Shown: positions 18,357-59,583, counted from the stretch's first letter. The stretch: DNA of 64,000 bases from Dehalococcoidia bacterium (GCA_963665775.2 CAXXTF010000002.1:320001-384000), one strand, 5' to 3'. The notes: generated by a model from the letters alone, not told the origin. A program made the numbers and translations.

Positions 18357-18445
18357 TCCTCACCTCGCTGTCAACCTTCATCTATCTACTATGTACAGGA
18401 GAAAGGCGCACTTACTGGACGAAGGATATCCTTATCGCGCCTTAG

Positions 18446-20149: not shown

Positions 20150-20431
20150 CTAAGCCTAGCCAAACCGTATCAACTCCCCCGCCGAAGATCAAGTATTGTA
20201 TTCGCGTCGGCCCATCCCAAGCCCTCTCGTACACCTTCTGCTACTGCGTCTGGGTAACGCGGAGGCAGGTTGCGTAAAGAAGCTGCCGAAGTAAGAAGTA
20301 AGATGATAACTGACCGCGTTTCGCTCGTCCTCCCCGTATCTGAGCCACAGCGCACAGGGCGAGATGCCTCCTAAGCAGCATCTTTGATCTACGGGCTGCC
20401 GCGACATCCGTGGCTGCCAAACACTATCAGG

Positions 20432-20690
20432 TCATGGTGTCCCGTTCCCGGCAGACGCACTGCCTACAAACTCACTTGACCAGTGAAGTGCGCCGCCCCA
20501 GTCGAAGTCGCTGTCCTCAATAAGCGGCAAGACGTCCCGGTATCTGCGACGTAGCTCGTCCCTATGAGTCCAGCCGTCATCGCGGCCGATGACTTTGAGC
20601 TGCGGGGGCGGCGATCGGCTAAGCGTCTCGTAGAAAAGAAACCTAGCGGCAAAATCGGCGGATGGAAGCGAGTAGCCTATAAAGATCACC
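20432..20690 (-). pseudogene. SIR2-like domain protein C-terminal remnant, clipped by IS6
   Basis: IFIGYSLPSADF motif; 5' end abuts the IS6 IR at 20691. Confidence 0.65.
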
Positions 20691-21069
20691 GGTTCTGTCA
20701 GAACTCAGGGCGCGGGGGTAAGCTTGTCTCAATGTAGGAGAGGAGCTACCGATGAACTGCCCGCATTGCCGATCGACGGCCACCAGCAAACGGAAGTACC
20801 GCACCGCCCTGGGCTACCATAGGTTCTCGTGTAGGTCTTGCCACCATCGATTCAACGAACGTACCCGTACGCCCTACAACGACCTCCAGTTCCCCAGCGA
20901 TGTCGTCCTGTTGGCGGTACTCTGGCGGCTGCGCTACAAGCTCGGGTTCCGCGATGTCGCCGAACTGCTCCTCCAGCGCGGTTATGAGGTCACGCACGAG
21001 ACGGTGCGAGCCTGGGAGTTCCGGTTTGCTCCTCTTCTGGGCGAACGACTGCATGCCCGGCGCCGCGGC
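20691..21069 (+). mobile_element. IS6-family element, 5' third only
   Basis: IR GGTTCTGTCAGAACTCAGGGC; MNCPHC...ARRRG then unrelated sequence. Confidence 0.88.
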
Positions 21070-21541
21070 GCACGACGCGCTCCTTGTTCCCCTTGCCGAT
21101 GACCCGCACGTAGTCGTAGCGGGAGCTGGGGTCAATCTGCATCGATAGAAACTCGGACGCCCTGAGCCCCGTGTCGAACAGCACCATGATGATGGTGTGG
21201 TCCCGCACTCCCATCTTCACCTTGATATCGCAGGAACGCAGTAGCGTTTGGACATCCTCGACAGTCAGCGCAGGTATGATGCGGTTCGGTATCCGAGGCG
21301 AGGGGATGGCTTTGACCGGATTGTCGGGCCGCTCGCCCTGAATCACGAGCCAGCCGAAGAAGCGACGTAGGGAACGATACCGTTGAGCCACGGTGGCGGG
21401 TGCCGGTTTCTTATCGCCAAGCTTGTACTCTTGCAAGAAGTGACGAATATGCTCAGCCGTCACGACTGTGGGGTCATCACCAGGTAGCCCCATCTCTGCC
21501 AAGAACGCCCGGAGCTGGTCAGAGGCCAACCGTTGGACCAC
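21070..21541 (-). pseudogene. Tyrosine recombinase internal fragment
   Basis: TVAQRYRSLRRFFGWL, RDHTIIMVLFDTGLRASE, GKGNKER; HxxR and Tyr region missing. Confidence 0.8.
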
Positions 21542-21614
21542 CTGCTGCTTACTCCGGGAGTCTAGCCATCAATGGCGGGGGCCACGGGGGCGCCAGCCCC
21601 TTACATCTAAGTGA

Positions 21615-21661
21615 TGGAGGGCCCGGTGGGATTCGAACCCACGACTCTCGGATTAAAAGTC
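21615..21661 (-). other. tRNA-Lys(TTT)-like 3' half, putative att core (copy 1)
   Basis: GACTTTTAATCCGAGAGTCGTGGGTTCGAATCCCACCGGGCCCTCCA; no 5' half. Confidence 0.85.
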
Positions 21662-21669
21662 ACGCTCTC

Positions 21670-21895
21670 GGGGCCTCATTGCTAAGGCCTCAAATTCGAA
21701 AACTGGGGTGAGACTGGGGTAAGAACAGGGTGAAATCGGGACCTCGCTGAGGGGCCCAATTGCTAATAGGCTGGATTCAAAACTGTGGTAAGCCTGCCGT
21801 GAATCTTCGGTGGATTTACGTGAGCGATCGCCTCCGCCGCGAGGGCCTTAATTGCTAAGGTAATTGTTAAGGCGCTAGATTCAGAATCTTCAGGC
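21670..21895. repeat. Blocks of ATTGCTAA box plus 11-bp phased repeats between integrase and att
   Basis: ATTGCTAA x3 plus ATTGTTAA; GGGGTGAGACT/GGGGTAAGAAC/AGGGTGAAATC; conserved at 39255..39500. Confidence 0.75.
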
Positions 21896-22906
21896 TAATC
21901 GGGCGTTCCCAGAAATCAGACTACCCTCCCCCAGCCTCCCTTTCAATCGATCTGCCGGGCTGAACAGGACGTGCGCCTGCGCCGCTTTTTCAGCGTCGTA
22001 GGTCGCCGTGTAGCGCCGTAGCATCGCCGGCGTGGAGTGGCCAAGAAGCGCCTGTACGTCAATCTCCCTCGCTTGCTGCTCGATGGCCCAGGTGGCGAAG
22101 GTGTGGCGGAAGCGATGCGGATGTACGTGATGTAGAGAGGCCTTCTGGTCCAGCCTCTGGAAGATGGTCCGCAGGGCAGTCCGGCACAGTTGTCCGCCCC
22201 GGCAGGTCAGAAATAGCGGCCCGGGGCCACCGCTTCGGAATCGTCCCAGGTAGTGCTGGATGGCCCGGCGCGCCTCATCCCCAAACCGGACCACCCGCTG
22301 TTTGTTCCCCTTCCCGTGACTGACGTGCATGCGCCCACGCTCAAAGTCGACCTCATCCAGCAGAAGGTTACACAACTCGGTCGCCCGGAGGCCGGTGTCC
22401 AGTAGGACAAGGATGAGGGCCCGGTCTCTGCCCCCTTTGTGGGTCGAGGGATCGCAGTAGGCGAGAAGGCGCAGGACATCCTCCTGGGAGAAGGGCCGAA
22501 TCACCTTCTGAGGCACCTTGATGTTCTTCACCTTGGAGAACGGGTTCGTGGCGACGTAATCGTGACGCAGGAGCCAGGAGAAGAATGCCCTGGTCTCCCG
22601 CTGCCTCCGCCACTGGGTCATGGCGGAAACGCCAGTATCGGCCACGCACCCCAGGAACTGGTAGACGTGGGCAGCAGTGAAGGAGGCTGGATCCTCGGGT
22701 AGTCTCTTCTGCCCGATGACATTCGTGAAAATACCAAGGGTCTCCCGATAAGACCGGATGGTCTCCTCCGACTTCCCCTTGATGCGACAGGAGGTGAGGT
22801 AGAGTTCGATGACCTCCGTCAGGTCCCGCTGGTGGCTGCCGTTGCCGTCGCCGTTTCTCTCTATGCTCTCCCCCACACTTAGATAAGAAGGCCGTGTTGC
22901 ATTCAT
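21890..22906 (-). CDS. XerC/D-like tyrosine recombinase (integrase), 338 aa
   Basis: TGLRATE, HGKGNK, HPHRFRH, LGH, RRY catalytic set; start taken at MNATRP. Confidence 0.92.
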   Translation of the reverse strand: MNATRPSYLSVGESIERNGDGNGSHQRDLTEVIELYLTSCRIKGKSEETIRSYRETLGIFTNVIGQKRLPEDPASFTAAHVYQFLGCVADTGVSAMTQWRRQRETRAFFSWLLRHDYVATNPFSKVKNIKVPQKVIRPFSQEDVLRLLAYCDPSTHKGGRDRALILVLLDTGLRATELCNLLLDEVDFERGRMHVSHGKGNKQRVVRFGDEARRAIQHYLGRFRSGGPGPLFLTCRGGQLCRTALRTIFQRLDQKASLHHVHPHRFRHTFATWAIEQQAREIDVQALLGHSTPAMLRRYTATYDAEKAAQAHVLFSPADRLKGRLGEGSLISGNARLA

Positions 22907-23123
22907 CACTCTGCTGCGGCGGCAAGTCAAGCGCAGGAGCGAATCGGGCGGATTGGCCCAATTCAGGCTGCCGGAGAGGGGTCGGCACACACTAGAACGA
23001 GCGAGGTGCGCACACAGGCGCGCTACCTTTTCAGCTTCGGATGTATTTTGGCCCCCCACAATCGCTCACTGCCCTTTAGCCGGATGTATGATTGTGCCAC
23101 CTATCTGTCCAAAGGAGGCTGCC

Positions 23124-23264
23124 ATGCAGGGTTACTGCCTGAAGTGCAAGGCGACCAGAGAAATGCGTGACGCAAAGGCGGTCACCCTCAAGAACGGACG
23201 GCCAGCAACCCAGGGGTCATGCCCGGTCTGTGGAGGCAAGATGTCCCGAATAGGCAAGGCGTAG
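23124..23264 (+). CDS. DUF5679-type small zinc-ribbon protein (46 aa)
   Basis: AAGGAGG RBS; MQGYCLKCK...KNGRPATQGSCPVCGGKMSRIG. Confidence 0.88.
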   Translation: MQGYCLKCKATREMRDAKAVTLKNGRPATQGSCPVCGGKMSRIGKA

Positions 23265-33850: not shown

Positions 33851-34031
33851 ACGACAATGTCTATCGGCAAGACGGGTAGACGCATCGAGTGGCCCCACAG
33901 AAACGGCAGCTTACATTGCTGCCTACATGCGGACAGGCTGCGGCGGGGTGAGCAGCGACACTATGCAGACTTAGTGTTGGTCGCCCAACCGTCTGATAAG
34001 GCCCTCGGTGACATGAACGAAGGGTATTTGG

Positions 34032-34577
34032 CTAATCTCTGCTGGCGCGGCGCGCTGCCTGCTCGTTGTCCCGTTGGACACTGCCGAAGCGAGTTAGTTC
34101 GTGTCTGAGGTCGAGGGGGGCCACCACGGCGCGGCTATCGAATTCGCCCCATCGGTCCCGGGGAACCATCCACATTACCTCGAACTCATTGCCATCGGGA
34201 TCGCGCCCATAGAGCGACTTGGTAGCCCCGTGATCGCTCTGGCCAGTGAGCGCACCTAGATCGGCCAGCAGGGAGGCAGCCTCGGCCAGATCCTCAATCT
34301 TGGCCACTTCCCAGGCCAGATGGTAGAGTCCGGTAGATCCGGGCGCCGGCTGCGCGGCCGTCGGTCCCACCTCCAGAAGCCCAAGGTCATGGTGGTTGCT
34401 GAATCCGCGGGAGCGCAGGAAGGCCATCTTCCCCGCTTCGCGGGCGATCTCTTGGAATCCGAAGGCTAGCTGGTAGAATTCCACCGACCGGTTCAGGTCC
34501 CGAACGTATAGGACGGCGTGATTCAATCGCGTAACCCGAACGAAAGTGGCGGACTCCTTGGTGTCCAAGTCACTCAT
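34032..34577 (-). CDS. VOC/glyoxalase family protein
   Basis: LNHAVLYVRDL, NHHDLGL, GLYHLAW, DHG..SLYGRDPDGNEFEV. Confidence 0.92.
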   Translation of the reverse strand: MSDLDTKESATFVRVTRLNHAVLYVRDLNRSVEFYQLAFGFQEIAREAGKMAFLRSRGFSNHHDLGLLEVGPTAAQPAPGSTGLYHLAWEVAKIEDLAEAASLLADLGALTGQSDHGATKSLYGRDPDGNEFEVMWMVPRDRWGEFDSRAVVAPLDLRHELTRFGSVQRDNEQAARRASRD

Positions 34578-34589
34578 AATATGCTCCTT

Positions 34590-35327
34590 TCAGATTCGGC
34601 CCTTCCATATCCCCACTGGTTTGAACTGCATTGGCACATCCACAAGGATGAGCTCGCTCCGATTAACCGCACGGATGCGAAGATCGGGTTCGTCCGTCAC
34701 CTTGGCCGCGTCGCCAGTATGCAGGTGCTCTTCGAAGAACCGGGCCGCGCCATTGATCAGATATGCATACACGCCACGGCGGGCGCCAATCTCGTGCGCG
34801 ACCTCAACGCCAGGCTCCAGCGAAGCGATGTGGACGGACGCGTCCTGATGAAGCTGGACACTGTCGCCTCCTTCGGGACCGATGACCTTCAGGAGCCTGT
34901 TGGTGCGGTCTTCGAGCGTAAAGACACGCTGCTCGACTCCTGGCTTGAGGTCAGGTGTGTCTGGGAGGATCCAAATCTGGACGAATCGCATCGGTTCGTC
35001 TTTCGACGCGTTCTGCTCGGAGTGGAGCGCCCCTGAGCCCAGCGTCATGCGTTGCACCGACCCGGCCGGTAGTGGTCCATATGAGCCTCCGACGTTGTCC
35101 TCGTGTCCGAACGTGCCTTCCACGACATAGGTGAGCCCTTCGACGTCGCGGTGTGGGTGAAGCGGCCAGGTGGCACCGGGGGTCAGGCGGTCGTCGTTGA
35201 ATACGCGCATCGCCCCGAAGCTTTCATTCTCGGGATCGTTGTACGTCTCAAACGAAAAGTGCCAGCGGGCGTGATACCAGTCGCCCACGACTTCGTAGAT
35301 TTCACTATTGCGACGAACTCTGATCAC
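34590..35327 (-). CDS. Pirin family protein
   Basis: WHFSF..Y.DP, RVFNDD, HPHRDVE, HSEQN, QIWILP; GTG start after GGGAG. Confidence 0.92.
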   Translation of the reverse strand: MIRVRRNSEIYEVVGDWYHARWHFSFETYNDPENESFGAMRVFNDDRLTPGATWPLHPHRDVEGLTYVVEGTFGHEDNVGGSYGPLPAGSVQRMTLGSGALHSEQNASKDEPMRFVQIWILPDTPDLKPGVEQRVFTLEDRTNRLLKVIGPEGGDSVQLHQDASVHIASLEPGVEVAHEIGARRGVYAYLINGAARFFEEHLHTGDAAKVTDEPDLRIRAVNRSELILVDVPMQFKPVGIWKGRI

Positions 35328-35572
35328 CGCGATCTCCCTTCCACCGTCCAGATCCGACGGACCCTGAAGGGCGGCGTGGTCCTCCCCCTCAAGCCCGTGC
35401 CGCCACGCTAGTGAGAAAGGATTATAGTACTCCCTTCCGCGCCTCGCAATGAGGGTCGGAATTGGCCACAACCCAAACTCTTGGGTAAAGTTGTCTGCCT
35501 AACCACACAGCCCCGATTCGGGACGGATTGTACGGTTGCCTCAGCGTGGTCTTGCGTCAAGCTGATTCCACC

Positions 35573-35714
35573 GGATCTGTCAGATCTCAGGGCTTAGGCG
35601 CCGCCAGGAACGCGGTCCTGGCCTCACGACGCCCGCCCTCAGATTCGGAGGGCGTCGATTTCTCGCCCTCCAGCATGCCCCGATATGGCTCGAGCCCTGA
35701 GTTCTGACAGATCC
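35573..35714. mobile_element. 142-bp MITE with IS6-type ends
   Basis: GGATCTGTCAGATCTCAGGGCT...AGCCCTGAGTTCTGACAGATCC; no transposase. Confidence 0.85.
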
Positions 35715-35715
35715 C

Positions 35716-36012
35716 TTTAGTCAGGGCTACGTCTCGTCCGAACTGCTGGTTGATAACGCTGATTACCGCACGGCCATCCGCGAGAAGATCGGCTCTGGCG
35801 CCCCCGGCTTCCAAGCTTTGTTCCCGGATGGCGGGATAGTGCCAGCCGACTATGAAGTCGTTTATGCGATCGTGGCCGAATGGGGCGATCGGACTCTTCG
35901 CGACCTCCCTTTCTTCAGCAAGATCAACCTTCGTAAGCATTCACGGAATCTGCGGCGACTGGGATTCAAGGTGACCCACGCTGCGGTGCAAGTTGTCAAT
36001 CCTGACCCATAG
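35716..36012 (+). pseudogene. TIGR04141/DUF6119-like protein C-terminal remnant
   Basis: FSQGYVSSELL...YEVVYAI...LPFFSKINL...RLGFKV; clipped by the MITE. Confidence 0.7.
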
Positions 36013-36096
36013 AAGCCAGAAAGACGGCGTCCGTAGGTTGACGAAATCTCGAACCACAGGTGTCAGCAGATCGAAAATATCCGCAGCGGTCAGGCC

Positions 36097-36170
36097 TGTG
36101 GGGTGCTAAAATTACATCCGTATCTGAAAACGTCATGCGGCCAGCCATTCGTACTCGTGATGTAGACCAC
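36097..36170 (-). mobile_element. rve-IS end with transposase 3' tail
   Basis: 30-bp end plus GLHHEYEWLAA*, same layout as 13820..13890. Confidence 0.8.
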
Positions 36171-36343
36171 TGTGGGGTGCCAAAACCTCATCCGTATCTG
36201 GAGATTCGGATCGGCCAGCCAAGGGATCTGGGTCTTAGATGGCCAGGAGCACCTGCGGAAGTGTCCAACTAGACTCCCTGCCCGGCAAGTAGGTGGTCCA
36301 GCGGCTGGCCTGTTACGTAGGGATAGGGTTTTGGATCCCCACA
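36171..36343. mobile_element. 173-bp MITE-like unit with rve-IS ends
   Basis: TGTGGGGTGCCAAAACCTCATCC...GGATAGGGTTTTGGATCCCCACA. Confidence 0.6.
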
Positions 36344-36348
36344 ATGCT

Positions 36349-36489
36349 CTACGCCTTCCCGATGCGGGACATCTTGCCTCCGCAGACCGGGCAAGGCCCC
36401 TGGGTTGCTGGCCGTCCGTTCTTGAGGGTCACAGATTTGGCGTCGCGAATTTCTCTCATCGCCTTGCACACCAGGCAGTAACCCTGCGT
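36349..36489 (-). pseudogene. DUF5679 paralog with ACG in place of ATG
   Basis: Same RBS AAAGGAGGCTGCC; (T)QGYCLVCK...CPVCGGKMSRIGKA*; TTGACA-N16-TATGAT upstream. Confidence 0.8.
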
Positions 36490-36694
36490 GGCAGCCTCCT
36501 TTGGATGGATAGGTGGCCCAATCATACGATGGCCAAGAGGGCTGTCAAGGGCTAAGCACGGCGGGGTGCCAAGATGTCATCCGTGTCTGATGGGCTAGCC
36601 ACATCTTAGGCGCTCGCGGCCAAGAACCCGGAGGGTGTAAAGCGGTGGGCGCTCGAGCGGTGCCAGCGGAGCGAACGGTAAGAGTTCGCACTGG

Positions 36695-36853
36695 CTCGAG
36701 TTCGACTATGCCGTCGTGGTGGATACGGACAAGTTTAACGCGAAGGAGTTCTACGTTGCTTCGACTCGCGGCACGAGCGGATTAACTGTTCTATCACCAA
36801 GTCCCGTAGTGAGGTTCGACGGTGTCTCGAACACTTTGGAGGAGTACCCATAA
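36695..36853 (+). pseudogene. UvrD-like helicase C-terminal remnant (GajB-like)
   Basis: LEFDYAVVVD...FYVASTRGTSGLTVL (helicase motifs V/VI). Confidence 0.65.
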
Positions 36854-37099
36854 GTTGGTCCGCTGCTCCGATAACAGCTATCAACCATTGTGGGGTGCCA
36901 AATTGTTATCCGTATCTGAACGATGTCCTGGATATACCAGTTGCCCGCCGTTCACGTGGCTCGCATGCCACAGGTCGTGAGTGGCTCGACGAGGGTTCCA
37001 GGGCAAGGGGGCAAATGAACGGCGACTCCGGGATTCTAACTCCGGGAGTCTAGCGGCCAGCCGCCGATTCGCTGTGGCCAGCCCTTTACATCTGAGTGA

Positions 37100-37144
37100 T
37101 GGAGGGCCCGGTGGGATTCGAACCCACGACTCCCGGATTTAAAG
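37100..37144 (-). other. tRNA-Lys-like 3' half, putative att core (copy 2, loop CTTTAAA)
   Basis: Same T-arm/acceptor as copies 1 and 3; one loop substitution; no 5' half. Confidence 0.8.
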
Positions 37145-37224
37145 TTCGGGGGCTGCCCGCGCCTTGAGTTGTCCTCCTCTTAAATATGGGAGGTAACCAC
37201 TTCTTGCGTGCAGTTATGCGCTGT

Positions 37225-38076
37225 CTACCTCGGATTTAGGCTCCAATTCCCGTCAGCCCGGACATCCCAATAACAGGGTCCCTCGGCGAACGAGACGACC
37301 GTGCTGCCGGTGACAGCCCCGATTTCATTTTGGACGAGGTCAAACCCACCAAAGCAGAACAGCCAGACGATGAAGTTACGCGATCCGTCATGGGATACCT
37401 CCCACGGTGCCGCATTCGTACTTGAGGGTATGAAGAGCCCGCTTATCGCGTCTCCAGATCCACCGAAGCTGGACGATGTCACTATCCCTATGGGCTTAAT
37501 CGTAGCCGTCCAGGAACCATCAGCATTAATTTCCAGGAAGAATGGTTCAGCCCCCACGATTGCGCGAGTGCCCTGGTATCGACCGATCTCGTTGACGAGG
37601 AGGTCCTCTTCTCCGTTCTGAAAGACCTTGACGATGAAGTTGCTCGGCCCGGCGTGAGTAAAGGTTATGGTCGAGATCGCCGACGGTGGAGTTATCGGGT
37701 CCGTCACGACTTGGCCGACTCCCTGCAGGACTATCGGTGTCGGTGCCGGCGTAGGCACCGGCGTTGGCGTCGGACTAGCGGTTGGAGTTGCGGTCGGAGC
37801 GATTGTTGAAGTCGGCTCCGGTGTCCGAGTCGGGGTAGCGGCTGGCGTGGCACCAGGAGTGGGACTAGGTGTGGCAGTGGGTGTGGCTGTTGCGCCCCCG
37901 ACGATCCCGTCCGATTCGTCGTCTCCATCTCCGGAGCCCGCCGCGATCGAGATAATGACAATCCAGAGTAGCCCGGTGCCGACCGCGGCACTGATCTGAC
38001 CCCATCTGAATGGTATAAACCGCCGCCAGACGGGTAGCAGGACCGTCCACTCAAGGATCAGTCGGATGCGATCCAT
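37225..38076 (-). CDS. Membrane-anchored PT-linker protein with two repeated beta domains
   Basis: TM, PT-rich linker, twice H.G..NFIV...LVxNEIG...ADG.W. Confidence 0.8.
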   Translation of the reverse strand: MDRIRLILEWTVLLPVWRRFIPFRWGQISAAVGTGLLWIVIISIAAGSGDGDDESDGIVGGATATPTATPSPTPGATPAATPTRTPEPTSTIAPTATPTASPTPTPVPTPAPTPIVLQGVGQVVTDPITPPSAISTITFTHAGPSNFIVKVFQNGEEDLLVNEIGRYQGTRAIVGAEPFFLEINADGSWTATIKPIGIVTSSSFGGSGDAISGLFIPSSTNAAPWEVSHDGSRNFIVWLFCFGGFDLVQNEIGAVTGSTVVSFAEGPCYWDVRADGNWSLNPR

Positions 38077-38343
38077 CGCTAGAATCCTGCCTTTACTGGC
38101 CAGCTATGTCGGCGCTTCGTATTCACTCCGCTTCAGCTCCTCGATCCAGGTGGTCATGTCTGCCACCGACCTCATTGACTCTACGACTACCCACAGCATC
38201 TGATCCGGCGGTGGGTGCTTGGCAAGGTAATCAGCAAGGCAAACGACCTCACGCCGCTGGCAATGCGCCGAAAAGGTGGGTGCCTGATGGCGGATGTGAA
38301 AACAGCCGGGGAACCTCGGATCTATGATGGCTACCTTTACGAT

Positions 38344-38715
38344 TCATTCTGCATTTCTAGGGCGCTCTATCAAAGGGAGATTGACCGACTCGTCATCAGT
38401 AACGGTGAGGGTAGCGACCTGTTTGCCATCGATAAGGAGGTCAACGTGATTGTCACCCCATCGAACAAAAACCCTGATGATGCCCTCCGGGCTGGGAACG
38501 GCAGCGCTTATAGACCCAGTAAGGATTAGTTCTTCTTTATGAAGTACGTTCGCCAACTTGACCTGAATCGTTCCATCAGGAAGCTTCGTGGGCTGTGCGC
38601 TTACCTCCGCGTGGATACGGGTCGGAAACCAGTAGCTGCTCCCGTTCTTGTGCCAGTCTTGGTGCGGGTGCTGCAGCCCCAGCATGATCGTTCCTGTGTC
38701 TCTTACATCTGCCAT
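38344..38715 (-). CDS. Hypothetical protein (beta-rich)
   Basis: GAGGGAG RBS; W..NHVDLLIDGKQVA resembles a LamG-like strand. Confidence 0.6.
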   Translation of the reverse strand: MADVRDTGTIMLGLQHPHQDWHKNGSSYWFPTRIHAEVSAQPTKLPDGTIQVKLANVLHKEELILTGSISAAVPSPEGIIRVFVRWGDNHVDLLIDGKQVATLTVTDDESVNLPLIERPRNAE

Positions 38716-38889
38716 CGTAGCTCCCTCTCTGTTCAGGTACTTCCCCGCTTCTTGCGAAGCGTGCCCTTGCTATGGCCATCTGTCAATATTTTTGGCCATT
38801 TGGCCATAGAGGTAGGTGCCTGATGAACCGTCGTCAAGCGCAGGGCGCGGTGATGGGCGATAGAAAAGAAATGCGCCCGGTCTACGATG

Positions 38890-39005
38890 TTCCTTTCCCT
38901 TTGATGCTCAGCTTCGCGTTCCTTTAGCGGTCGCTCCGTAATTCCGCCGTGCTTGATCTTGTTGCCTTCTTTGAACTCGTATTTCCTATAGGTTCTCGCC
39001 GGCCT
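38890..39005 (-). pseudogene. Small GIY-YIG-like protein remnant
   Basis: KYEFKEGNKIKHGGITERPLKEREAEHQ; start unclear. Confidence 0.45.
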
Positions 39006-39199
39006 GCATCCCCTGGCCCCGCGTGGAAGGCTTCCGGCCCGCCGTTGGTACACATGATAATTCTAGCGTCCTTCACTTGCCTATTGCCAGCCGTACCAGG
39101 CAAAGGTGGCAAACGAGCGGAGACCCCCGGATTCTCACTCCGGGAGTCTAGCCATCATTGGCAAGGACCACGGGGGGCCAGCCCGTTACATTTAAGTGA

Positions 39200-39246
39200 T
39201 GGAGGGCCCGGTGGGATTCGAACCCACGACTCCCGGATTAAAAGTC
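39200..39246 (-). other. tRNA-Lys(TTT)-like 3' half, putative att core (copy 3)
   Basis: Near-identical to 21615..21661. Confidence 0.85.
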
Positions 39247-39254
39247 ACACTCTC

Positions 39255-39500
39255 AGGGCCTAATTGCTAAGGCCTCAGATTCGATAATCGGGGTGAAACT
39301 GGGGTAAGAACAGGGTGAAATCGGGACCTCGCTGAGGGGCCCAATTGCTAAAAGGCTGAAATTAAATCTGCGGTAAACTTGCGGTGAATCTTCGGCGGAT
39401 TTACGTGAGCGATCGCCTCCGCCGCGAGGGCCCTAATTGCTAAGGTAATTGTTAAGGCGCTAGATTCAGAATCTTCAGGATACCTTCAGGGAATCTTCAG
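39255..39500. repeat. ATTGCTAA box plus 11-bp phased repeat array (second copy)
   Basis: As 21670..21895, with two extra 11-bp CTTCAGG units. Confidence 0.75.
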
Positions 39501-40513
39501 GCTAATCGGGCATTCCCCAAGATCCGACTCTCCTCCGCTAGCCTCCCCTTCAAGCGATCTGCCGGGCTGAACAGGACGTGCGCCTGCGCCGCCTTCTCCG
39601 CATCGTAGGTCGCCGTGTAGCGCCGCAGCATCGCCGGCGTGGAGTGGCCAAGAAGCGTCTGAACGTCAATCTCCCTCGCTTGCTGCTCGATAGCCCAGGT
39701 GGCGAAGGTGTGGCGGAAGCGGTGCGGATGTACGTTGGTTAGAGAGGCCTTCTGGCCCAGCCTCTGGAAGATGGTCCGCAAGGCGGTCCGGCACAGGGAC
39801 TGTCCTCTGCATGTCAGAAATAGCCGCCCGGGGCCCCGGCCTCGAAATCCCTCCAGGTAGTGCTGGATGGCCCGGCGAGCCTCATCCCCAAACCGGACCA
39901 CTCGCTGTTTGTTCCCCTTCCCGTGACTGATGTGCATGCGCCCAGTCTCAAAGTCGACCTCTTCCAGATCAAGGTTACATAACTCGCTGGCCCTGAGGCC
40001 GGTGTCCAGCAGGACGAGGATGAGGGCCCGGTCTCTGGCCCCTTTGTGGGTCGAGGGATCGCACCAGGCGAGGAGGCGAAGGACATCCTCCTGGGAGAAC
40101 GGTCGAATCACCTTCTGAGGCACCTTGATGTTCTTCACCTTGGAGAACGGGTTCGTGGTGACGTAATCGTGACGCAGGAGCCAGGAGAAGAATGCCCTGG
40201 TCTCCCGCTGCCTCCGCCACTGGGTCATGGCGGAAACGCCAGTATCGGCCACGCACCCCAGGAACTGGTAGACGTGGGCAGCAGTGAAGGAGGCTGGATC
40301 CTCGGGTAGTCTCTTCTGCCCGATGACGTTCGTGAAGATCCCAAGGGACTCCCGATAAGACCGGATGGTCTCCTCCGACTTCCCCTCGATGCGACAGGAG
40401 GTGAGGTAGAGTTCGATGATCCCCGTCAGGTCCCGCTGGTGGCTGCCGTTGCCGTCGCCGTTTCTCTCCATGCTCTCCCCCACACTTAGATAAGAAGGCC
40501 GTGTTCCATTCAT
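39497..40513 (-). CDS. XerC/D-like tyrosine recombinase, close paralog of 21890..22906
   Basis: Same length and catalytic R-K-HxxR-H-Y motifs. Confidence 0.92.
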   Translation of the reverse strand: MNGTRPSYLSVGESMERNGDGNGSHQRDLTGIIELYLTSCRIEGKSEETIRSYRESLGIFTNVIGQKRLPEDPASFTAAHVYQFLGCVADTGVSAMTQWRRQRETRAFFSWLLRHDYVTTNPFSKVKNIKVPQKVIRPFSQEDVLRLLAWCDPSTHKGARDRALILVLLDTGLRASELCNLDLEEVDFETGRMHISHGKGNKQRVVRFGDEARRAIQHYLEGFRGRGPGRLFLTCRGQSLCRTALRTIFQRLGQKASLTNVHPHRFRHTFATWAIEQQAREIDVQTLLGHSTPAMLRRYTATYDAEKAAQAHVLFSPADRLKGRLAEESRILGNARLA

Positions 40514-40754
40514 CACTCTGCTGCTGCGGGAAGTCAAGCGCCGTTGCAGAGAACGCGGGAGGAAACAGGAGCGAATCGGGCGGATAGGCCCAATTCAGGC
40601 TGCGGGAGAGGGGTCGGCACACACTAGAACGAGCGAGGTGCACACACAGGCGCGCTACCTTTTCAGCTTCGGATGTATTTTGACCCCCCACAATCGCTCA
40701 CTGCCCTTAGCCGGATGTATGATTGTGCCACCTATCTGTCCAAAGGAGGCTGCC

Positions 40755-40768
40755 ATGCAGGGTTACTC
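40755..40768 (+). pseudogene. DUF5679 5' stub cut by an rve-IS end
   Basis: Same promoter/RBS and ATGCAGGGTTACT, then CATTTTGCCCCCCCCACA. Confidence 0.75.
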
Positions 40769-40789
40769 CCATTTTGCCCCCCCCACACT

Positions 40790-40986
40790 GAGAGTTGCTG
40801 GCGGAGGGCCATATTCTCCAGGACGAGGTGATGCTGAGATCTAAAGGTGGCGCGCAGGGCAGAGCGAAGGAGCAGCAGGTGATCAATGCCGGGCCTCCGT
40901 GACTTCGTAATGTCCTAACGCTGGCCCAACTAGCTCAGTGCGTCAACCCTCCTAGATACGGATGACATTTTGCCCCCCCCCCCACA
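40790..40986 (-). mobile_element. rve-IS transposase 5' head and end
   Basis: Aligns by eye with 14800..14991. Confidence 0.8.
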
Positions 40987-41138
40987 CCCACAACTTCGGC
41001 TAACAGAACCCAGCTGTACAGATAGGGATGACATTTTGCCCCCCCCCACAGGTCCAGCAGCTGGCCTTTTGAATACGGATGAAGTTTTGGCACCCCACAG
41101 AGCGATTCGGGGACGCACCGCCCATGCCGAGGACGACG

Positions 41139-41879
41139 CTACGTTGCTGGCGTATCAAAGCGGCTATGGATCACTTTGTACTTGTTCCGTAGTCTCACAA
41201 AGTCCCAGAGCTCTCCGTGCTTCTCGCGAGTGACTATTATGATCCCGGCTTCTTTGAGTTCCTTCACGCCGCGAGTCCATGTGTCCTCAGAGAGTCCATA
41301 CTGCAAGCGCGCCCTGTCGGGTCTGACATGGGCGCCTTGTTCACGATCTTTCTCTCCCACCAGTTCTGACAGAATGAGGAGGAGGGCGATCGCGCGACCT
41401 GAGAGTCGAACGATCCACCCGTTCGTCCAGAACGTAACGGGAAGATTCACCCAGGTGCTCCTTGGGCGGGAGTATGGTTTGCCATCTCCGGTATGACTCC
41501 GTAGGTAGACTCGTCGCGGCCGGCCACGGCGTCGGTTATCTATGGAGATGAGTTTGTGCTGCTGCAACGAAGCAATAGCCTCGCTTACTCGGCGCGCACC
41601 GTTAATTTTAGGGCTAGGGAGGTTGAGCATCTCGGCCCACACCCGTGCCGGCTGGGGCCGAACATCGAATGGATCGCTGGTGGCTAGCAGGTTCATTGAC
41701 AGGAAAAGTTTCAGCCTCACCTCCCCTCCGCGGCCTCCGCGCATCAACGTGGCCAACGGAGGCGGCCGTCCGTCGTCGCGACGGATGAAGTCTTTTGCAA
41801 GGGGGACAACGCTGCGTCTTGATGTAGTAACCACCCAGTGGAGGAGACGGCGACCATCGGTAGTAACGGTGTTTTTCAA
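41139..41879 (-). CDS. Hypothetical protein with two predicted winged-helix domains
   Basis: AAGGAG RBS + TTG; WAEMLNL...ARRVSEAIASLQQHKLI and YGLSEDTWTRGVKELKEAGII...RNKY. Confidence 0.75.
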   Translation of the reverse strand: MKNTVTTDGRRLLHWVVTTSRRSVVPLAKDFIRRDDGRPPPLATLMRGGRGGEVRLKLFLSMNLLATSDPFDVRPQPARVWAEMLNLPSPKINGARRVSEAIASLQQHKLISIDNRRRGRPRRVYLRSHTGDGKPYSRPRSTWVNLPVTFWTNGWIVRLSGRAIALLLILSELVGEKDREQGAHVRPDRARLQYGLSEDTWTRGVKELKEAGIIIVTREKHGELWDFVRLRNKYKVIHSRFDTPAT

Positions 41880-42334
41880 ATTCGTGCTCCTTGTTGCGGG
41901 GGGAGCGGGGCTGCTGTGGTAGTGCTAGGCGTTGCAGGCGTTCCTCGGGTTGCAGGCATTATCGGTCCAATCGAATCCGTTTCCGCCGTCGGCGCCACCG
42001 CAATAGATGCATTGGTTTATTGGTACGCAACGCCAGGATAGTACCGCAACAATAGCATGTTACCCCCTACATATCCTCCTTGCGGTCCCGCCATAAAGGT
42101 GTCGCGGGTGTATTTGACCGGGTACGTTGCCGCCCGATAATAATCATAGACGAAAAGAGGCCTAGGACTGAAGCACCAGCCCTAGGTCTAGATAGATACA
42201 CCGCAGGGATGGGAATCACCTCAGGTGTCTCCGCGCTAATCTCCGATCCGTCTAGCGAACGACTTTTGCGAGCCTATGGATGTCAGGTGGGAGCGGGCCG
42301 CTGGGGTTGGCCTTCGCAGCATCCGAGGAAATCC

Positions 42335-42430
42335 ACTGCTCTCTGGCAGCAGATGGCCGCGATCTATCCGCCCTATAACGACTACCAGGCGCGCACCGAG
42401 CGCGAGATCCCAGTCGTCATTCTGGATCTG
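42335..42430 (+). pseudogene. Deazaflavin-dependent nitroreductase C-terminal fragment
   Basis: [28 protein letters not shown]. Confidence 0.7.
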
Positions 42431-42454
42431 GACCAGTTTGGCGGCGTGCTGTGT

Positions 42455-42625
42455 CTTGACGGTCTGGTGCAGTAGGTCGGGCAACGCGAATAGATCCCGG
42501 GTGCCCTGTAGAAAGAGCATCGGGACGGCGATATTCACTAAGTGAGCGTCTCGGATGCGTTCGGGCTTGCCGGGCGGGTGGAGCGGGTAGCCGAGAAACA
42601 CGAGACCCGAAGATGCCACTCTACA
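42455..42625 (-). pseudogene. Alpha/beta-hydrolase fragment
   Basis: [23 protein letters not shown]...[12 protein letters not shown]. Confidence 0.7.
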
Positions 42626-42706
42626 CCTCCCCGACAGCAAGGATGGCCGTGCTTCAATCGCCCCGCCCGGCACGGAGTCCCGCATGAGAAGCGCTATGCC
42701 GTATGA

Positions 42707-43387
42707 CTACTGGGACGAGCCACTGGACTGGACGATCCGCATGTACGCGCTCACCCCGAGGAGGGCACCAAGAGGCGGGCCAAGCCAGTAAACCCACTGA
42801 TCCTCGAATGTGAAAGTCGCGAGAGCGGGTCCAAGTGAGCGAGCTGGGTTCATTGAGCCACCGGTAAGGGGCCCAGCCAGGATTGCTCCAACGCATACGG
42901 CTCCACCAACTCCGAGAGCGGCAGTTACGGATGAGAGGTCCTGCTTTGAGATGACGATGGCGACGACGAGCGCCAATAGCGCAGTGATGGCGATCTCTAT
43001 AGTTAGCGCCTCTCCCAGCGTGACGGAGGGGACTGTCGCACCGAGCTGGACTTTGTTTCCGGCTAGGATCAGCAACAGGAGACTAGCCGCTACGGCTCCA
43101 CCAATCTGGGACGCGATGTAAGCCGGAATGTCACGGTATCGGAACCTACCGTAGACAGCAAGCGCGAAGCTTATCGCAGGATTAAAGTGAGATCCGGACA
43201 CATGCCTGGTAGCATAGACCATCAACCCAATGGCGAGCCCGAACACGATCCCAATTCCGAGGTTGCCTAAAGGCCAATCTGCTGACCCATCGAGAACGAT
43301 TGCCCCCGTGCCCGCAAACACAAAGGCGAAGGTCCCAAGGAACTCAGCCTGGCAGCGGCGAATTAGGGAATTTGTGCTCAAACGCAA
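42707..43387 (-). CDS. MIP/aquaporin channel
   Basis: AEFLGTF, SGSHFNPA, GGSMNPARS, WVYWLGP; start uncertain. Confidence 0.88.
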   Translation of the reverse strand: MRLSTNSLIRRCQAEFLGTFAFVFAGTGAIVLDGSADWPLGNLGIGIVFGLAIGLMVYATRHVSGSHFNPAISFALAVYGRFRYRDIPAYIASQIGGAVAASLLLLILAGNKVQLGATVPSVTLGEALTIEIAITALLALVVAIVISKQDLSSVTAALGVGGAVCVGAILAGPLTGGSMNPARSLGPALATFTFEDQWVYWLGPPLGALLGVSAYMRIVQSSGSSQ

Positions 43388-49285: not shown

Positions 49286-49400
49286 CTTCCAACTCCTTTC
49301 TTGGTCGGGCGTTGTCCTATAGGATTGCCCCCTCCCCTCAATTCTTAGGCTGGGCCGTGACGAGCCGGACGGATCCGGGTCCTTCGCCTCACCCCGAAAC

Positions 49401-50347
49401 GGTTCTGTCAGAACTCAGGGCGTCAATGCCGCGGAGATGGTTCTCGGTTCGTAATCGGGGCTGATTACGCTGCTGCCATCTCCGCCGTCAGCGCCTGCCA
49501 TCTCGATAGGAAGACTCGACGCCTCTCCGACAAAGACATCTGCCCGCCCATTGGCGTGCGGATGCGCAGGTACTGGCGCAGCTCTTCGAACGCCGAGCAG
49601 AAGCGCTTCGCCGACTCCATTCGCTTGAACCCCAGCATGGGGTAGTAGCGCTGTTTGATGGCCCGGTGGTCCTGCTCGATACGATTGTTCAGGTACCGAC
49701 TCTGCCGGTGCAAGACCTTCCCACCCAGTATCCAGCGGATCGCCTTTCCGTAGGCCGGATGCTGGTCAGTGGTGAGGCGCAACGGCTTGTGGGTCGTGAC
49801 GTCGGCCAGCCGCCGTAGAAAGAGACGGGCAGCCGCTCTATCCCTTCGCTCACTCAGCATCGAGTCCAGAAGATTGCCGTCCCGGTCAATGGCGCGGTAC
49901 AGGTAACGCCAACGACCGCCGACCTTCACGTAGGTCTCATCTAGATACCAGGAGAGACCGCTTGTCTGGCCGCGCCGCCGGGTACGCAGTTGTTCGCCCA
50001 GAAGAGGAGCAAACCGGAACTCCCATGCCCGTACCGTCTCGTGTGTGACCTCGTAGCCTCGCTGAAGGAGCGGTTCGGCGACATCGCGGAACCCAAGCTT
50101 GTAGCGTAACCGCCAGAGGACCGCCAACAGGACGATGTCGGTGGGGAACTGGAGGTCGTTGTAGGGCGTACCGGTGCGCTCGTTAAAGCGACGGTGGCAA
50201 GACCTACACGAGAACCTATGGTAGCCTAGGGTGGAGCGGTGCTTCCGTTTGCTGGTTGCTGTCGATCGGCAATGCGGGCAGTTCATGGGTAGCTCCTCTC
50301 CTACATTGAGACAAGCTTACCCCCGCGCCCTGAGTTCTGACAGAACC
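49401..50347 (-). mobile_element. IS6-family element, 947 bp, transposase 49465..50286
   Basis: Both IRs, full 273-aa ORF. Confidence 0.95.
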
Positions 50348-50549
50348 CGTCCAGTCCGGAGGCCAGCATGAGACCGCCGGCCCCGGCAGTGTGGGAGGAG
50401 CCGGACGTACGGGCCGGCTCACATCGCTCAGCCGCCGGCAACGCCTGTCCAGCGCGCCCGGATACGCCCCCGATCACCAGCAGGAGCAATGTGATCGCCG
50501 CAAAGGCGGCAAACAGCAACAGGTAGCTTCTTCTCAGCCTTTTTCCCAT
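50348..50549 (-). pseudogene. Inverted 5' end (signal peptide) of the matrixin-dockerin gene
   Basis: MGKRLRR+TM...ASGLD joins in frame to AMTDESDLVL at 52260 via duplicated GACTGGACG. Confidence 0.8.
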
Positions 50550-51086
50550 ACCCTCTGACACGGGGGATCCGGCAATCCATCTCGTACTGGAAGACGCGTG
50601 GCTTCGGGCGGCATTACTCGCGCTCCAAGATCGCGGCCCAGAAGGCACAAGTTGTTCTGCCCGCCGTAAGGCACCGCCGTCTCCACTCTAATATAACGAG
50701 ACCGAGCGGAAACCGTCCTCGACCTCATGTTCGGCCGCTCATTATATCGTGAATTTCGATCGAGCGCGCCCAATAAGGACCTCGGCAGGCCACCTTCCGA
50801 CCGAAGCGGGACGGAGCCTCGCCCCCAGCGATACGCTAGGGTTCAGCCGGTCCTCCAGTTTTGCGGCCGGACAGGCCATCGGCTGCTACACTACTCCTAG
50901 TGCTGGGCTGGCTACAAAGCTAGTTGACAGGAACCATAGGCGCTGTTTCAATACCTGCGGAGGCCTTTCGGGAAATTAGCGCCCGGGCGAGAGTGTGGGT
51001 GTCGCCCGCGGAGCTGATATTTCGGGGGGGGCAGCGGGACGCCTGAAACCGCCCGAAATAGTTTTGGCGAAGGCCTCTCACAGGGA

Positions 51087-51161
51087 GCGGGCGTAGCTCA
51101 GTGGTAGAGCATCTGCTTCCCAAGCAGAGGGCCGTGGGTTCGATCCCCATCGCCCGCTCCA
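51087..51161 (+). tRNA. tRNA-Gly(CCC)
   Basis: Full cloverleaf GCGGGCG...TCTGC TTCCCAA GCAGA...CGCCCGC T CCA, 75 nt. Confidence 0.97.
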
Positions 51162-51312
51162 AGTACAACTTGGCCGACATCCGGGAACGCTCCGGCTGTC
51201 TGGGATACAATCCATCAGCCTCAACATGGGCGGTGGCAGAGCGGTGCGCGAACGTCCGCCAGATACGGATGAAATGTTGACACCCTATAGCCAGGATGGA
51301 TCTGCTCGGCGC

Positions 51313-52259
51313 GGTTCTGTCAGAACTCAGGGCGCGGGGGTAAGCTTGTCTCAATGTAGGAGAGGAGCTACCCATGAACTGCCCGCATTGCCGATCGACA
51401 ACAACCAGCAAACGGAAGCACCGCTCCACCCTAGGCTACCATAGGTTCTCGTGTAGGTCTTGCCACCGTCGCTTTAACGAGCGCACCGGTACGCCCTACA
51501 ACGACCTCCAGTTCCCCACCGACATCGTCCTGTTGGCGGTCCTCTGGCGGTTACGCTACAAGCTTGGGTTCCGCGATGTCGCCGAACTGCTCCTTCAGCG
51601 AGGCTACGAGGTCACACACGAGACGGTACGGGCATGGGAGTTCCGGTTTGCTCCTCTTCTGGGCGAACAACTGCGTACCCGGCGGCGCGGCCAGACAAGC
51701 GGTCTCTCCTGGTATCTAGATGAGACCTACGTGAAGGTCGGCGGTCGTTGGCGTTACCTGTACCGCGCCATTGACCCGGACGGCAATCTCCTGGACTCGA
51801 TGCTGAGTGAGCGAAGGGATAGAGCGGCTGCCCGTCTCTTTCTACGGCGGCTGGCCGACGTCACGACCCACAAGCCGTTGCGCCTCACCACTGACCAGCA
51901 TCCGGCCTACGGAAAGGCGATCCGCTGGATACTGGGTGGGAAGGTCTTGCACCGGCAGAGTCGGTACCTGAACAATCGTATCGAGCAGGACCACCGGGCC
52001 ATCAAACAGCGCTACTACCCCATGCTGGGGTTCAAGCGAATGGAGTCGGCGAAGCGCTTCTGCTCGGCGTTCGAAGAGCTGCGCCAGTACCTGCGCATCC
52101 GCACGCCAATGGGCGGGCGGATGTCTTTGTCGGAGAGGCGTCGAGTCTTCCTATCGAGATGGCAGGCGCTGACGGCGGAGATGGCAGCAGCGTAATCAGC
52201 CCCGATTACGAACCGAGAACCATCTCCGCGGCATTGGCGCCCTGAGTTCTGACAGAACC
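51313..52259 (+). mobile_element. IS6-family element, 947 bp, transposase 51374..52195
   Basis: Both IRs; inverted near-identical twin of 49401..50347. Confidence 0.95.
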
Positions 52260-53793
<1,534 letters not shown>

Positions 53794-56554: not shown

Positions 56555-57079
56555 CGGCCTCTGTGATCTCTTCGTCACCCTTACGCGGGTGCACCAGTCG
56601 TAATTGCCCAGCTCGTTAACCTGCTCTTCCCACTTCAGCGGGATCAAGCCGGCGTAGCTGATGCCCTTCTCAGGCATAGGGCTGGTGGAAGGCGACGCAT
56701 TCTGCTGTCCGGGTTGCGCGGAGGGCGGGCCCTGCAGCTGTACCTACGAGGGCGATCAGGCCCGCTACCCCCACAACGGCCACGGCGAACTGATGCTGGC
56801 CTTGGAGCGGCTTGAGGACGGGTTATGACGGGATCTCTAAAGGAAGCGGATGGCGCAGGACCGCGAATCCTCGAGCTTTTGGCCTGGGAACACGGGATTT
56901 GGGGTGCGCCACTAGCCAGCAGGTATGAGCGGCTGGTACAATCCGAAATTGATTGCAATTTTCGTGGTACCGAGTGTCGGCGTTAGGGGGGCGCGAAGGG
57001 CGACCTGAGCGATCAACCTCTACGAGACGTGAAGAAAGGATGGATCCTTGAGACGGTTCCTGAACAGACTTGGCCTTAG

Positions 57080-58783: not shown

Positions 58784-59583
58784 CTAAGGCAAAAATCTTT
58801 CTTGGTAGCTGGCGGCCAGGCGAGAAGCACGTGGTCGAGCTGCCGTTGACTTGCCGGAGAACACCGCAGGCAGAGATTCGAAGTAGGATTCTCCGCGGGC
58901 TTCATCGCCTATACGAAGGTGGATTCAAAGAGGAGAACTGCCAATTCGATCTGGCGGGGATCGGATTTGAACTCGGTGTAACCGAAGACCTTGTGATACG
59001 GGCAGTCAACTTTCTCTATGGCCAGGGCTTGCTCGACGATGGTGGAGCGATCAGCCTACCCAGAAGGTGGGGAGAGTTCACGTGGACGCCGCAGGGGATC
59101 CAACATGTCGAAGCCGAATTGGTTCCTGTGGAGACATTTCTGCAGGAATTATACGGTTCTACACTGGGCAATCTCGCATCCCTGGATTCAAATCTGGAGT
59201 CCAGCCTGATCCACCTACGAGAATGTGCGGGATCAATTGGGACCGCACGAGAGGATCTCGTCGGGTTTGCCTCTATGGTCAGAGAATTCATCGAGCGACT
59301 CACTGATCACCTCTATGGGTTAACGGGCAACGCCGAGTCGATAGCCAAGAGCCGGACCATTAATAAGGTGAAGGCCATCACGGCGTCGGCTTCAGCGGCG
59401 TCAACGAGTGGTGGAGCGCACGTTCAAGCTCTCGCTGAGGTCGTTGACACGCACTGGCGCAGGCTGAATGACGTTCAGCAGAAAGGAGTTCACTCAGGAA
59501 CCGTGGAATCGCAGCGACTCTTTGCTTACACACTGCTATTTGTAGCTGACTTGATGGATGTTTGGGGATCGAAGGACCGGTAG
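58784..59583 (+). pseudogene. 5'-clipped protein: winged helix plus HEPN-like (Abi/pPIWI-associated-type) domain
   Basis: AVNFLYGQGLL...TPQGIQHVE; C-terminal LNDVQQKGVH...YTLLFVADL; frame runs back into the IS. Confidence 0.55.

Follow-up and report, generated by a model that had tools for sequence, protein, structure and literature searches.

Probable tandem accretion of tRNA-Lys(UUU)-targeting elements, one of them integrase-less, in an array lying away from its tRNA gene in a Dehalococcoidia bacterium

In this work, we are presenting the analysis of a 64,000-nt stretch of DNA of an uncultured Dehalococcoidia bacterium (hereafter the window, with positions counted from its first letter), in which an intact gene of an Xer-like tyrosine integrase adjoins a row of partial tRNA-Lys(UUU) genes. 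We consider it rather likely that this locus arose by tandem site-specific accretion of elements targeting tRNA-Lys(UUU), among them an integrase-less member similar to cis-mobilizable elements (CIMEs), and that it was displaced from the tRNA gene. The array is probably fixed by now, embedded in debris of insertion sequences (IS). The window represents C2:320001-384000 of a two-contig (C1 and C2) 2.35-Mb assembly coded G000, which was compared with 64 other genomes of the order, 65 in total; codes of the G0xx type denote genomes and those of the Lxxx type loci or contigs. The features that carry the argument are as follows.

39497-40537, minus strand: Xer-like tyrosine integrase, longest open reading frame (ORF) 346 aa
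39247-39496, minus strand: P arm, 250 nt between the integrase gene and half A, repeat-rich
39200-39246, minus strand: tRNA-Lys(UUU) 3' half A, covering anticodon loop through CCA and forming an attR-type junction (att, attachment site)
39093-39199, minus strand: tail A, with the palindrome GACTCCCGGA-N7-TCCGGGGGTC at 39122-39148
37147-39092, minus strand: body of the 2.1-kb unit, with three co-oriented ORFs, a 76-bp block and the R1 end
37100-37146, minus strand: tRNA-Lys 3' half B, with altered core (AACTTTAAATCC, loop CTTTAAA)
36995-37099, minus strand: tail B, with the palindrome at 37024-37050
21614-21660, minus strand: tRNA-Lys 3' half C, in a second integrase module

This anatomy, namely the integrase, repeats, halves, tail, cargo, a spacing of exactly 2100 bp between halves A and B, a second module and the lack of tRNA-Lys in the window, had been outlined in an original prediction, and every part of it was found at the predicted position or no more than a few bases away. 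ARAGORN run on the 64-kb window called no tRNA-Lys gene, its sole call being tRNA-Gly(CCC) at 51087-51161. The start-to-start spacings of the 70-nt repeat family D6 are 15485 and 2100 bp. The halves match the real tRNA-Lys(UUU) of the genome (C2:1423856-1423930) from the anticodon loop through CCA, and exact 38-47-nt matches to this tRNA were found seven times in G000 and zero times with a reversed-pattern control, which rules out chance. BLAST of half plus tail, proposed with the original prediction, returned seven sites in G000: the real gene, C2:1428595, C2:1439707, the three sites of the window and C1:818062. At all seven the common identity begins at (G/A)ACTTTTAA, that is in the anticodon loop, and runs through CCA to CTAGACTCCCGGAGT and partly further, consistent with the predicted crossover in or next to this loop. 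The arms of the core are altered at half C and at the middle site of the tRNA locus (T-mid). Searching the region against Rfam gave sub-threshold T-arm-like tmRNA fragments at the two halves and nothing else. Read as a tRNA (37138-37146), half B would have the anticodon UUA within the loop CTTTAAA, which almost certainly reflects decay of a non-functional fragment and not a suppressor.

The single tRNA-Lys(UUU) gene of G000 lies 1.06 Mb from the window array, at one end of an array of its own: the tRNA with its tail is followed by a 4.7-kb integrase-less unit, a half with tail, an 11.1-kb unit ending in integrase and arm, and again a half with tail. This locus is a textbook picture of successive integrations into a tRNA gene, and the window displays the same grammar minus the gene; an intact target tRNA stands at the end of the array at C2:1423856, whereas the window has none. 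The counterparts of the genes following tRNA-Lys in G055 are at C1:806-818 kb of G000, beside the half at C1:818062, and those of the upstream flank of G015 at C2:142x kb. Synteny split in this way indicates that inserted DNA divided the original tRNA-Lys locus, and a separation of native flanks between C2:142x kb and C1:818062 is what would be expected from islands placed between the tRNA gene and its original flank. If the right ends of C1 and C2 are joined, the array at the tRNA locus would span ~108 kb; repeats hold three of the four contig ends of the assembly. About 100 nt past the last tail of this locus we noticed a tRNA-Gly(CCC)-like 3' fragment comprising anticodon arm, T arm and CCA (C2:1439857-1439960), and another tRNA besides tRNA-Lys may serve as an att site in G000.

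The tail is conserved for ~105 nt beyond CCA (families D8 and D11; seven-site alignment). Because it follows the real tRNA-Lys too, G000 by itself cannot decide between native and element-borne origin, and for that reason single-site loci of ten relatives, all from genera other than that of G000, are informative. Neither tail nor palindrome occurred within 400 nt downstream of tRNA-Lys at any of these ten loci (nine with the full gene, one with a half only), in contrast to G000, where the tail is present at every site, the real gene included; in several genera the native tRNA-Lys flank starts with a TTCGTATCTG-like sequence. Owing to this absence beside tRNA-Lys in the relatives, the tail looks to be carried by the elements, as had been predicted, rather than to be native flank. 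That it is simply a copied flank of tRNA-Lys does not agree with the nine full single-copy genes, which are devoid of it.

Each complete tail contains GACTCCCGGA-N7-TCCGGGAGTC, present at exactly four places in G000, all of them 49-51 nt past a tRNA-Lys 3' end; in three of the seven tails the right arm of the palindrome is not intact. The palindrome matches the anticodon arm of the tRNA (GAGCTCCGGA-CTTTTAA-TCCGGGAGTC) except in its 7-nt spacer and, slightly, in the left arm. With other spacers it follows halves in G019, G043 and G004 (at +46 to +49) and in G022 and G016 (at +166), and it was also encountered after halves in 19 metagenome contigs. We take the palindrome for a possible inverted pair of core-type sites bound by the integrase, or for what remains of a second att core. 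Folded as single-stranded DNA, the palindrome of tail A reached -13.7 kcal/mol (z -4.27); it was the one clear fold among four copies, the others giving z of -1.13 to -1.76 (tail B, -1.13). A terminator was regarded as less likely than an inverted repeat bound by protein, given the missing T-run, arms that vary without compensation and a weak fold in three of four copies.

The integrase matches Pfam Phage_integrase (PF00589, E 1.2e-39) and possesses SAM-like N-terminal domains; its true start is probably the methionine of MERNG, ~23 codons inside the longest ORF. The best NCBIfam models were XerC (184.5 bits) and XerD (171.7 bits), each well under its own cut-off, and among solved structures XerA and XerD come nearest, the alignment with XerA (4a8e) spanning the R, K, HxxR, H and Y motifs. 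Further copies with about 91-92% amino acid identity are located at 21890-22930 of the window and at C2:1438462-1439454, the latter directly upstream of the half at C2:1439707. The P arm contains a 17-nt motif three times (GGSCCTAATTGCTAAGG) at 81- and 92-bp spacing, two GGGTGAAAC-type motifs, a 29-nt motif three times, and TTTCACCC-type and CCTGAAG repeats. Such arm-type repeats are thus present between the integrase gene and the core, and their role as arm sites is predicted from sequence. The core-proximal ~100 nt of the arm is kept beside the integrase in three genomes of different genera and two families, G000, G019 and G037, the conserved features being TTTCACCCC repeats and GCCTTAGCAATTAGG.

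Between halves A and B lies the 2.1-kb unit, composed of the following parts.

38733-39053, minus strand: ORF of 106 aa, no Pfam match
38344-38715, minus strand: ORF of 123 aa, no Pfam match
38100-38175: 76-bp block
37225-38076, minus strand: ORF of 283 aa, with membrane anchor, Pro/Thr-rich linker and duplicated C-terminal domain
37147-37189: R1 right end, 43 nt

The unit had been predicted to be free of integrase, and indeed no recombinase domain was found in the three ORFs and no integrase-like tblastn match in 37129-39229. Being bounded by att sites and lacking recombination and transfer genes, it has the properties that define a CIME. Among the three cargo ORFs, only that of 283 aa has homologues in other genomes, its C-terminal part being found in 3 of the 64; no tRNA half occurred within 1.5 kb of the homologue at the one checkable locus (3.5 kb), the two others being at contig ends. 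The unit shares with the 4.7-kb unit of the tRNA locus the left-end tail, the 76-bp block and the 43-nt R1, while the genes of the two differ; the block, 93% identical between them, is the terminal part of a very small ORF that closely precedes a gene for a signal-peptide protein. R1 was found twice, both times in G000, and in no relative; its terminal bases GCCCCCGGA make a good left arm of a core. The idea that R1 is a diverged tail ending in the left arm of the palindrome proved too weak, with a z of 4.0 in one of 14 semi-global alignments and ~2 in several.

In its presumed overlap, half B has CTTTAAA in place of CTTTTAA. Tyrosine recombinases require matching overlap sequences, and with this mismatch recombination between halves A and B would be expected to be impaired. 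Since half B is substituted in the crossover loop, the 2.1-kb unit is probably no longer mobile. Its proposed mobilisation in trans as a cassette found no support; the distal site has CTTTAAA, and the right end is devoid of the arm motifs seen beside the integrase. Logan contigs from the runs X19, X20, X21 and X24 (four studies), holding 81-88% of sampled words, were compared to positions 34000-43000. One contig spans 37110-39176, and neither a 2100-bp skip nor the back-joint 37146/39246 was listed for the four runs, in whose contigs, ending at the halves, rare forms are invisible. The listed joints 36309>39132, 38175>37039 and 37225>38100 match other genomic copies at the tRNA locus. The repeated half sites are the likely cause of contig breaks at these places.

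Taken together, tandem accretion would most likely have proceeded in the following way. The Xer-like integrase would recognise the anticodon arm CTCCGGA-CTTTTAA-TCCGGGAG as its core and exchange strands in or beside the 7-nt loop, assisted by the repeat-rich P arm next to its own gene. An incoming element would supply its own 3' half together with the ~105-nt tail, thereby restoring the tRNA gene and displacing the earlier half outward. Over repeated rounds, with the gene restored and the old half displaced each time, halves would line up with one element after each of them. One element of the window would end, with its integrase and arm, at half A, and a second, integrase-less and cis-mobilizable element would fill the 2.1 kb from there to half B; its cargo consists of three ORFs, one of them for a membrane-anchored surface protein. 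The array was presumably severed from the tRNA gene through rearrangement and came to lie among IS fragments.

In relatives, the 3' half motif gave 129 matches in 47 of the 65 genomes, with at least two matches in 28 genomes, and the 5' half motif 32 matches in 31 genomes; up to two mismatches were allowed for the former, and the 5' pattern misses a few variant halves. In complete genomes the sites are dispersed (12 on both strands in G019, seven in G037). Clustering of the upstream 120 nt for a catalogue of 60 sites gave these classes.

tRNA 5' half: 17 of 60 sites
conserved integrase arm: 12 of 60 sites, 5 genomes
R2 end, ~115 bp: 11 of 60 sites, 6 genomes
three pairs, the R1 pair of G000 among them: 6 of 60 sites
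singletons: 14 of 60 sites

R2 was seen in six genomes and in a metagenome contig, namely in L028, L030, L032, L033, L081, L084, L085, L094, L095 and L100. A 12-bp hairpin (AATCCCCTCGTC...GACGAGAGGATT) and CTCTCCGTATCTGG are part of it, and the left ends that go with it have recurring GGGGATTCG motifs. Half-bounded units that lack an integrase are frequent among the relatives, and comparing cargo between sites, as had also been proposed, revealed unrelated genes within conserved ends: R2-bounded units hold an ABC transporter (2.1 kb), MMPL and a binding protein (4.1 kb), or a radical-SAM enzyme and a methyltransferase (3.4 kb). A radical-SAM gene occurs in units L028 of G022 and L032 of G031, genomes of different families, with 82% DNA identity over 1.1 kb and in opposite orientation to the tRNA, and cargo may have been transferred horizontally between these families. 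The 1.2-kb module of G019 (L018, L023, L024) consists of promoter region, integrase, arm and half, with unrelated DNA on the left; in L018 the half is followed by apparent native flank instead of the tail. At the middle site of metagenome contig L096 the loop is TTCTCAA, which is also the spacer in a tail palindrome of G019, so that a palindrome-type core is joined there to a complete T arm and acceptor end. A metagenome scan for a half/tail junction of the G000 type gave 0 matches.

Several observations weigh against tandem accretion as the explanation of the window. Neither an intact tRNA-Lys nor an attL-type junction is present there. The three integrase modules differ by ~10% and IS copies by <1%, so the modules are separate acquisitions or old copies rather than recent duplicates of each other. 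R1 is unlike the integrase-proximal arm even near the core and is common to both integrase-less units of G000, which a simple deletion derivative would not predict, and the R2 end is kept around unrelated cargo like a dedicated end. No target-site duplication was detected for any pairing of the bracketing IS ends, and intact copies show no clear one either; composite transposition by these ends was consequently left as unsupported. Finally, a glnA-glnA-amt block inside the 11.1-kb unit (C2:1430279-1434942) is duplicated at C1:326502-331165 with 99.8-100% protein identity, which means that arrays also take up ordinary segmental duplications.

A case for a dedicated cassette system, the idea of the original prediction, rests on the conserved ends and on how common integrase-less units are in relatives. 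In such a system, short integrase-less units with ends of their own would be excised and inserted at tRNA-Lys-type sites by integrases that separate integrase-arm-half modules supply in trans, and the 2.1-kb unit would be one such cassette. Between consecutive co-oriented sites, 27 of 34 intervals had no integrase-like match (E 1e-4, a single integrase query), four had a full-length integrase and three fragments, most of the 27 measuring 1.2-5 kb, but the loci were picked for having several halves and the figure is biased by that choice. Two adjacent units of G022 (4.1 kb with MMPL and 2.1 kb with the ABC transporter) are common only in ~200 bp on the left and ~107 bp on the right. In G013, a 64% complete assembly, four sites are accompanied by only two tyrosine recombinase matches, both far from the array and taken, from scores alone, as the housekeeping Xer pair. 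The 1.2-kb integrase-arm-half module of G019 is present in three copies with 97-99% identity and unrelated flanks, the three sites on L096 (6680 bp) are spaced at 1.2 and 1.35 kb, the intervals holding one or two small genes, and the two integrase-less units of G000 differ in genes within shared tail, 76-bp block and R1. Nevertheless, neither R1 nor R2 has the arm motifs conserved beside the integrase, and R1 is missing from relatives. The P arm is reduced to its last 14-30 nt at the ends of metagenome units L104, L107, L109 and L112, indicating integrase loss through deletion, i.e. decay, and the altered overlap of half B and core arms of half C and T-mid also count against a cassette system, as do the rare homologues of the 283-aa protein, with no half at the checkable locus. 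Contigs that break at halves, in which no excision product or empty site was seen, are uninformative here. We therefore treat a cassette system as doubtful. Similarly speculative is its wider form, in which marine and sponge-associated Dehalococcoidia of this order would have a two-part capture system at tRNA-Lys(UUU), made of cassettes (1-5 kb, 1-3 genes, ~100-200-bp ends) and ~1.2-kb integrase-arm-half modules acting in trans, with the tail palindrome as a second core where junctions also form and the 2.1-kb unit as a fossil cassette.

It is improbable that there is no second element at all and that the halves in 37100-39246 stem from IS-mediated or homologous duplication or rearrangement of one att junction, with the 2.1 kb being trapped ordinary DNA. 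The region is bracketed by IS ends, a 1.7-kb IS has ~19 near-identical copies in the genome, the 5-kb glnA-amt block was recently copied into the tRNA-locus array, and the junctions at half B and in the middle of the tRNA locus share R1, half and tail plus a 140-bp IS-end segment (36169-36309 vs C2:1428785-1428926, 92%). However, tails A and B are 80% identical to each other, while A is 94% identical to the middle site of the tRNA locus and B 87.5% to the tail of the real tRNA; with each tail closer to a different distant site, a recent local duplication does not fit. Moreover, spacing and layout recur in other genera, and no target-site duplications were found. It is scarcely credible that gene duplication produced the halves as tRNA-Lys pseudogenes, since decayed, with no relation to the integrase. 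ARAGORN does read one junction of R2 and half in G022 as a 77-nt tRNA-Lys, but the same loop boundary in all seven G000 sites and in most sites of relatives, the 12 sites in five genomes that adjoin the conserved integrase arm, and a 5' half motif almost never duplicated (32 vs 129) speak against it.

Tandem accretion with integrase-less members is an already described kind of structure (PMC3146451; bioRxiv 10.1101/2020.12.28.424599). The Dehalococcoides ssrA islands (McMurdie et al. 2011, PMC3146451) stand in tandem downstream of a gene for a small RNA, with a direct repeat of the 3' end of this gene bordering every island, and 15 without integration module are discussed as cis-mobilizable elements moved by accretion. 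Bacterial class, tandem stack, 3'-end repeats and integrase-less members are the same as in the window, but the article describes the T-loop of tmRNA as target, a 20-bp repeat and the serine recombinase DsiB beside attL (PMC3146451). Here, in contrast, we find the anticodon loop of tRNA-Lys, a ~150-nt repeat of half and tail, an Xer-like tyrosine recombinase beside attR, and some sites far from the target gene. For Streptococcus ICESt1 and ICESt3, which are conjugative and reportedly insert at the 3' end of fda, Pavlovic and colleagues are said to have reported in 2004 CIMEs, integrase-less att-flanked units beside an integrase-bearing element, and to have proposed site-specific accretion and deletion as their origin. 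The layout of an integrase-less unit beside an integrase-bearing element is the same here, with no transfer genes seen.

Tycheposons of Prochlorococcus are tyrosine-recombinase elements at tRNA genes in which older ones are pushed inward by newer ones, and their islands hold scattered fragmented integrases, partial tRNAs and niche-adaptive cargo, circles having been shown experimentally (bioRxiv 10.1101/2020.12.28.424599). They resemble our locus, by the description given there, in the tRNA-targeting tyrosine recombinase, the partial tRNAs and the marine hosts, and they differ in that no replication or helicase-primase module was identified in our array, which is known from sequence alone. As in the classical tRNA-gene islands catalogued by Islander (PMC4383910), the split tRNA is restored, the far end being recognisable by the 3' fragment that was displaced. 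Unlike in those, the identity block extends ~105 nt past the tRNA and includes a second core-like palindrome, and most units of the lineage are integrase-less. A literature search for tRNA and integrase islands in Dehalococcoidia, with supplementary files outside its scope (those on tycheposons may hold integrase-less arrays), did not bring up this tRNA-Lys system.

Integrons consist of a tyrosine recombinase beside a row of short, co-oriented, recombinase-free units, each ending in a repeated recombination site, and our locus is alike in having a tyrosine recombinase that adjoins co-oriented recombinase-free units with repeated end sites. The original description as integron-like nevertheless found no support. 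The integrase is not of the IntI type, scoring 67.6 bits with the integron-integrase model TIGR02249 (cut-off 265) and 35.9 with NF011946 (cut-off 435). There is no fixed attI platform; the integrase itself lies within an att-bounded element, and its module ends att-bounded units (the tRNA locus, L024 of G019) and occurs at several places. The sites are tRNA half plus tail, double-strand-type cores with arm sites and a clear palindrome fold in one of four copies, and not folded attC, and the units consist of one to three genes with intergenic DNA.

To our knowledge, the order is mostly known from metagenome bins, and we know of nothing reported on gene exchange among its members. Here a single tRNA gene is a lineage-wide landing pad (129 vs 32 half-motif matches in 65 genomes), with an unusually long att region that carries a mimic of the anticodon arm, and most units stacked at tRNA-Lys contain accessory genes (transporters, surface proteins, radical-SAM enzymes) and no integrase. 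If such units were mobilised in trans, this would be a cassette-type gene capture achieved by means other than integron machinery; if they are not, it is a further case of islands formed by accretion and decay.

The remaining features of the second module and of the surroundings of the array are listed below.

40538-40770, no strand assigned: integrase upstream region (families D5, D9; 97% identity to 22934-23139)
21536-23139, minus strand: second integrase module, with integrase 21890-22930, arm, half C 21614-21660 and tail
20990-21541, minus strand: 183-aa N-terminal piece of another tyrosine integrase (36.6% identical to the main one)
36097-36918, plus strand: IS debris below the array, four solo ~30-bp IS terminal repeats (TGTGGGGTGCCAAAA..ATCCGTATCTG; family D7)
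36349-36525, minus strand: third DUF5679 copy, within the debris below the array
40772-41099, minus strand: IS debris above the array, 3-4 copies of the same terminal repeat in opposite orientation (families D12, D16)

The stretch 39122-40770, from upstream region to tail, matches 21536-23139 at ~90% identity. The homology ends at 40770, six codons into a divergent DUF5679 gene on the plus strand (40753-40770), whose ORF is intact in the second module (22953-23264). There the tail stops within the loop (spacer) of the palindrome, and directly past it begins the 183-aa integrase fragment, interrupted by an IS6-like fragment at 20688-21069. The upper debris holds the last ~190 bp of a 1.2-kb IS, the first ~70 bp of which are found at 36097-36168. 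Just past this debris, upstream of the integrase, a 246-aa ORF (41139-41879) with a weak HTH_36 match could be leftover cargo of the integrase-bearing element. As for a viral origin, IMG/VR viral contigs gave 0 matches for the R2 pattern and the arm-plus-half pattern and no relatives of the integrase, and the ORFs scanned contained no phage domains, which leaves the locus outside prophages and phage satellites as these are usually recognised.

At least nine IS copies or fragments are present within the window. The ~19 genome copies of the 1.7-kb IS are >99% identical, and three of them lie in the window (7128-8846, 18435-20154 and 57054-58792); the IS6-like element has ~8 copies genome-wide. 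Near the array, a 1.57-kb segment whose ORFs are pirin-like and glyoxalase-like (33961-35531) has a counterpart of 98% identity at C2:978814-980383 and represents another recent duplication. The only intact tRNA of the window, tRNA-Gly(CCC), is situated between inverted IS6-like copies at 49400-50347 and 51313-52260, which are 99.4% identical, and the whole (49397-52260) looks like a composite transposon with a tRNA gene as its cargo.

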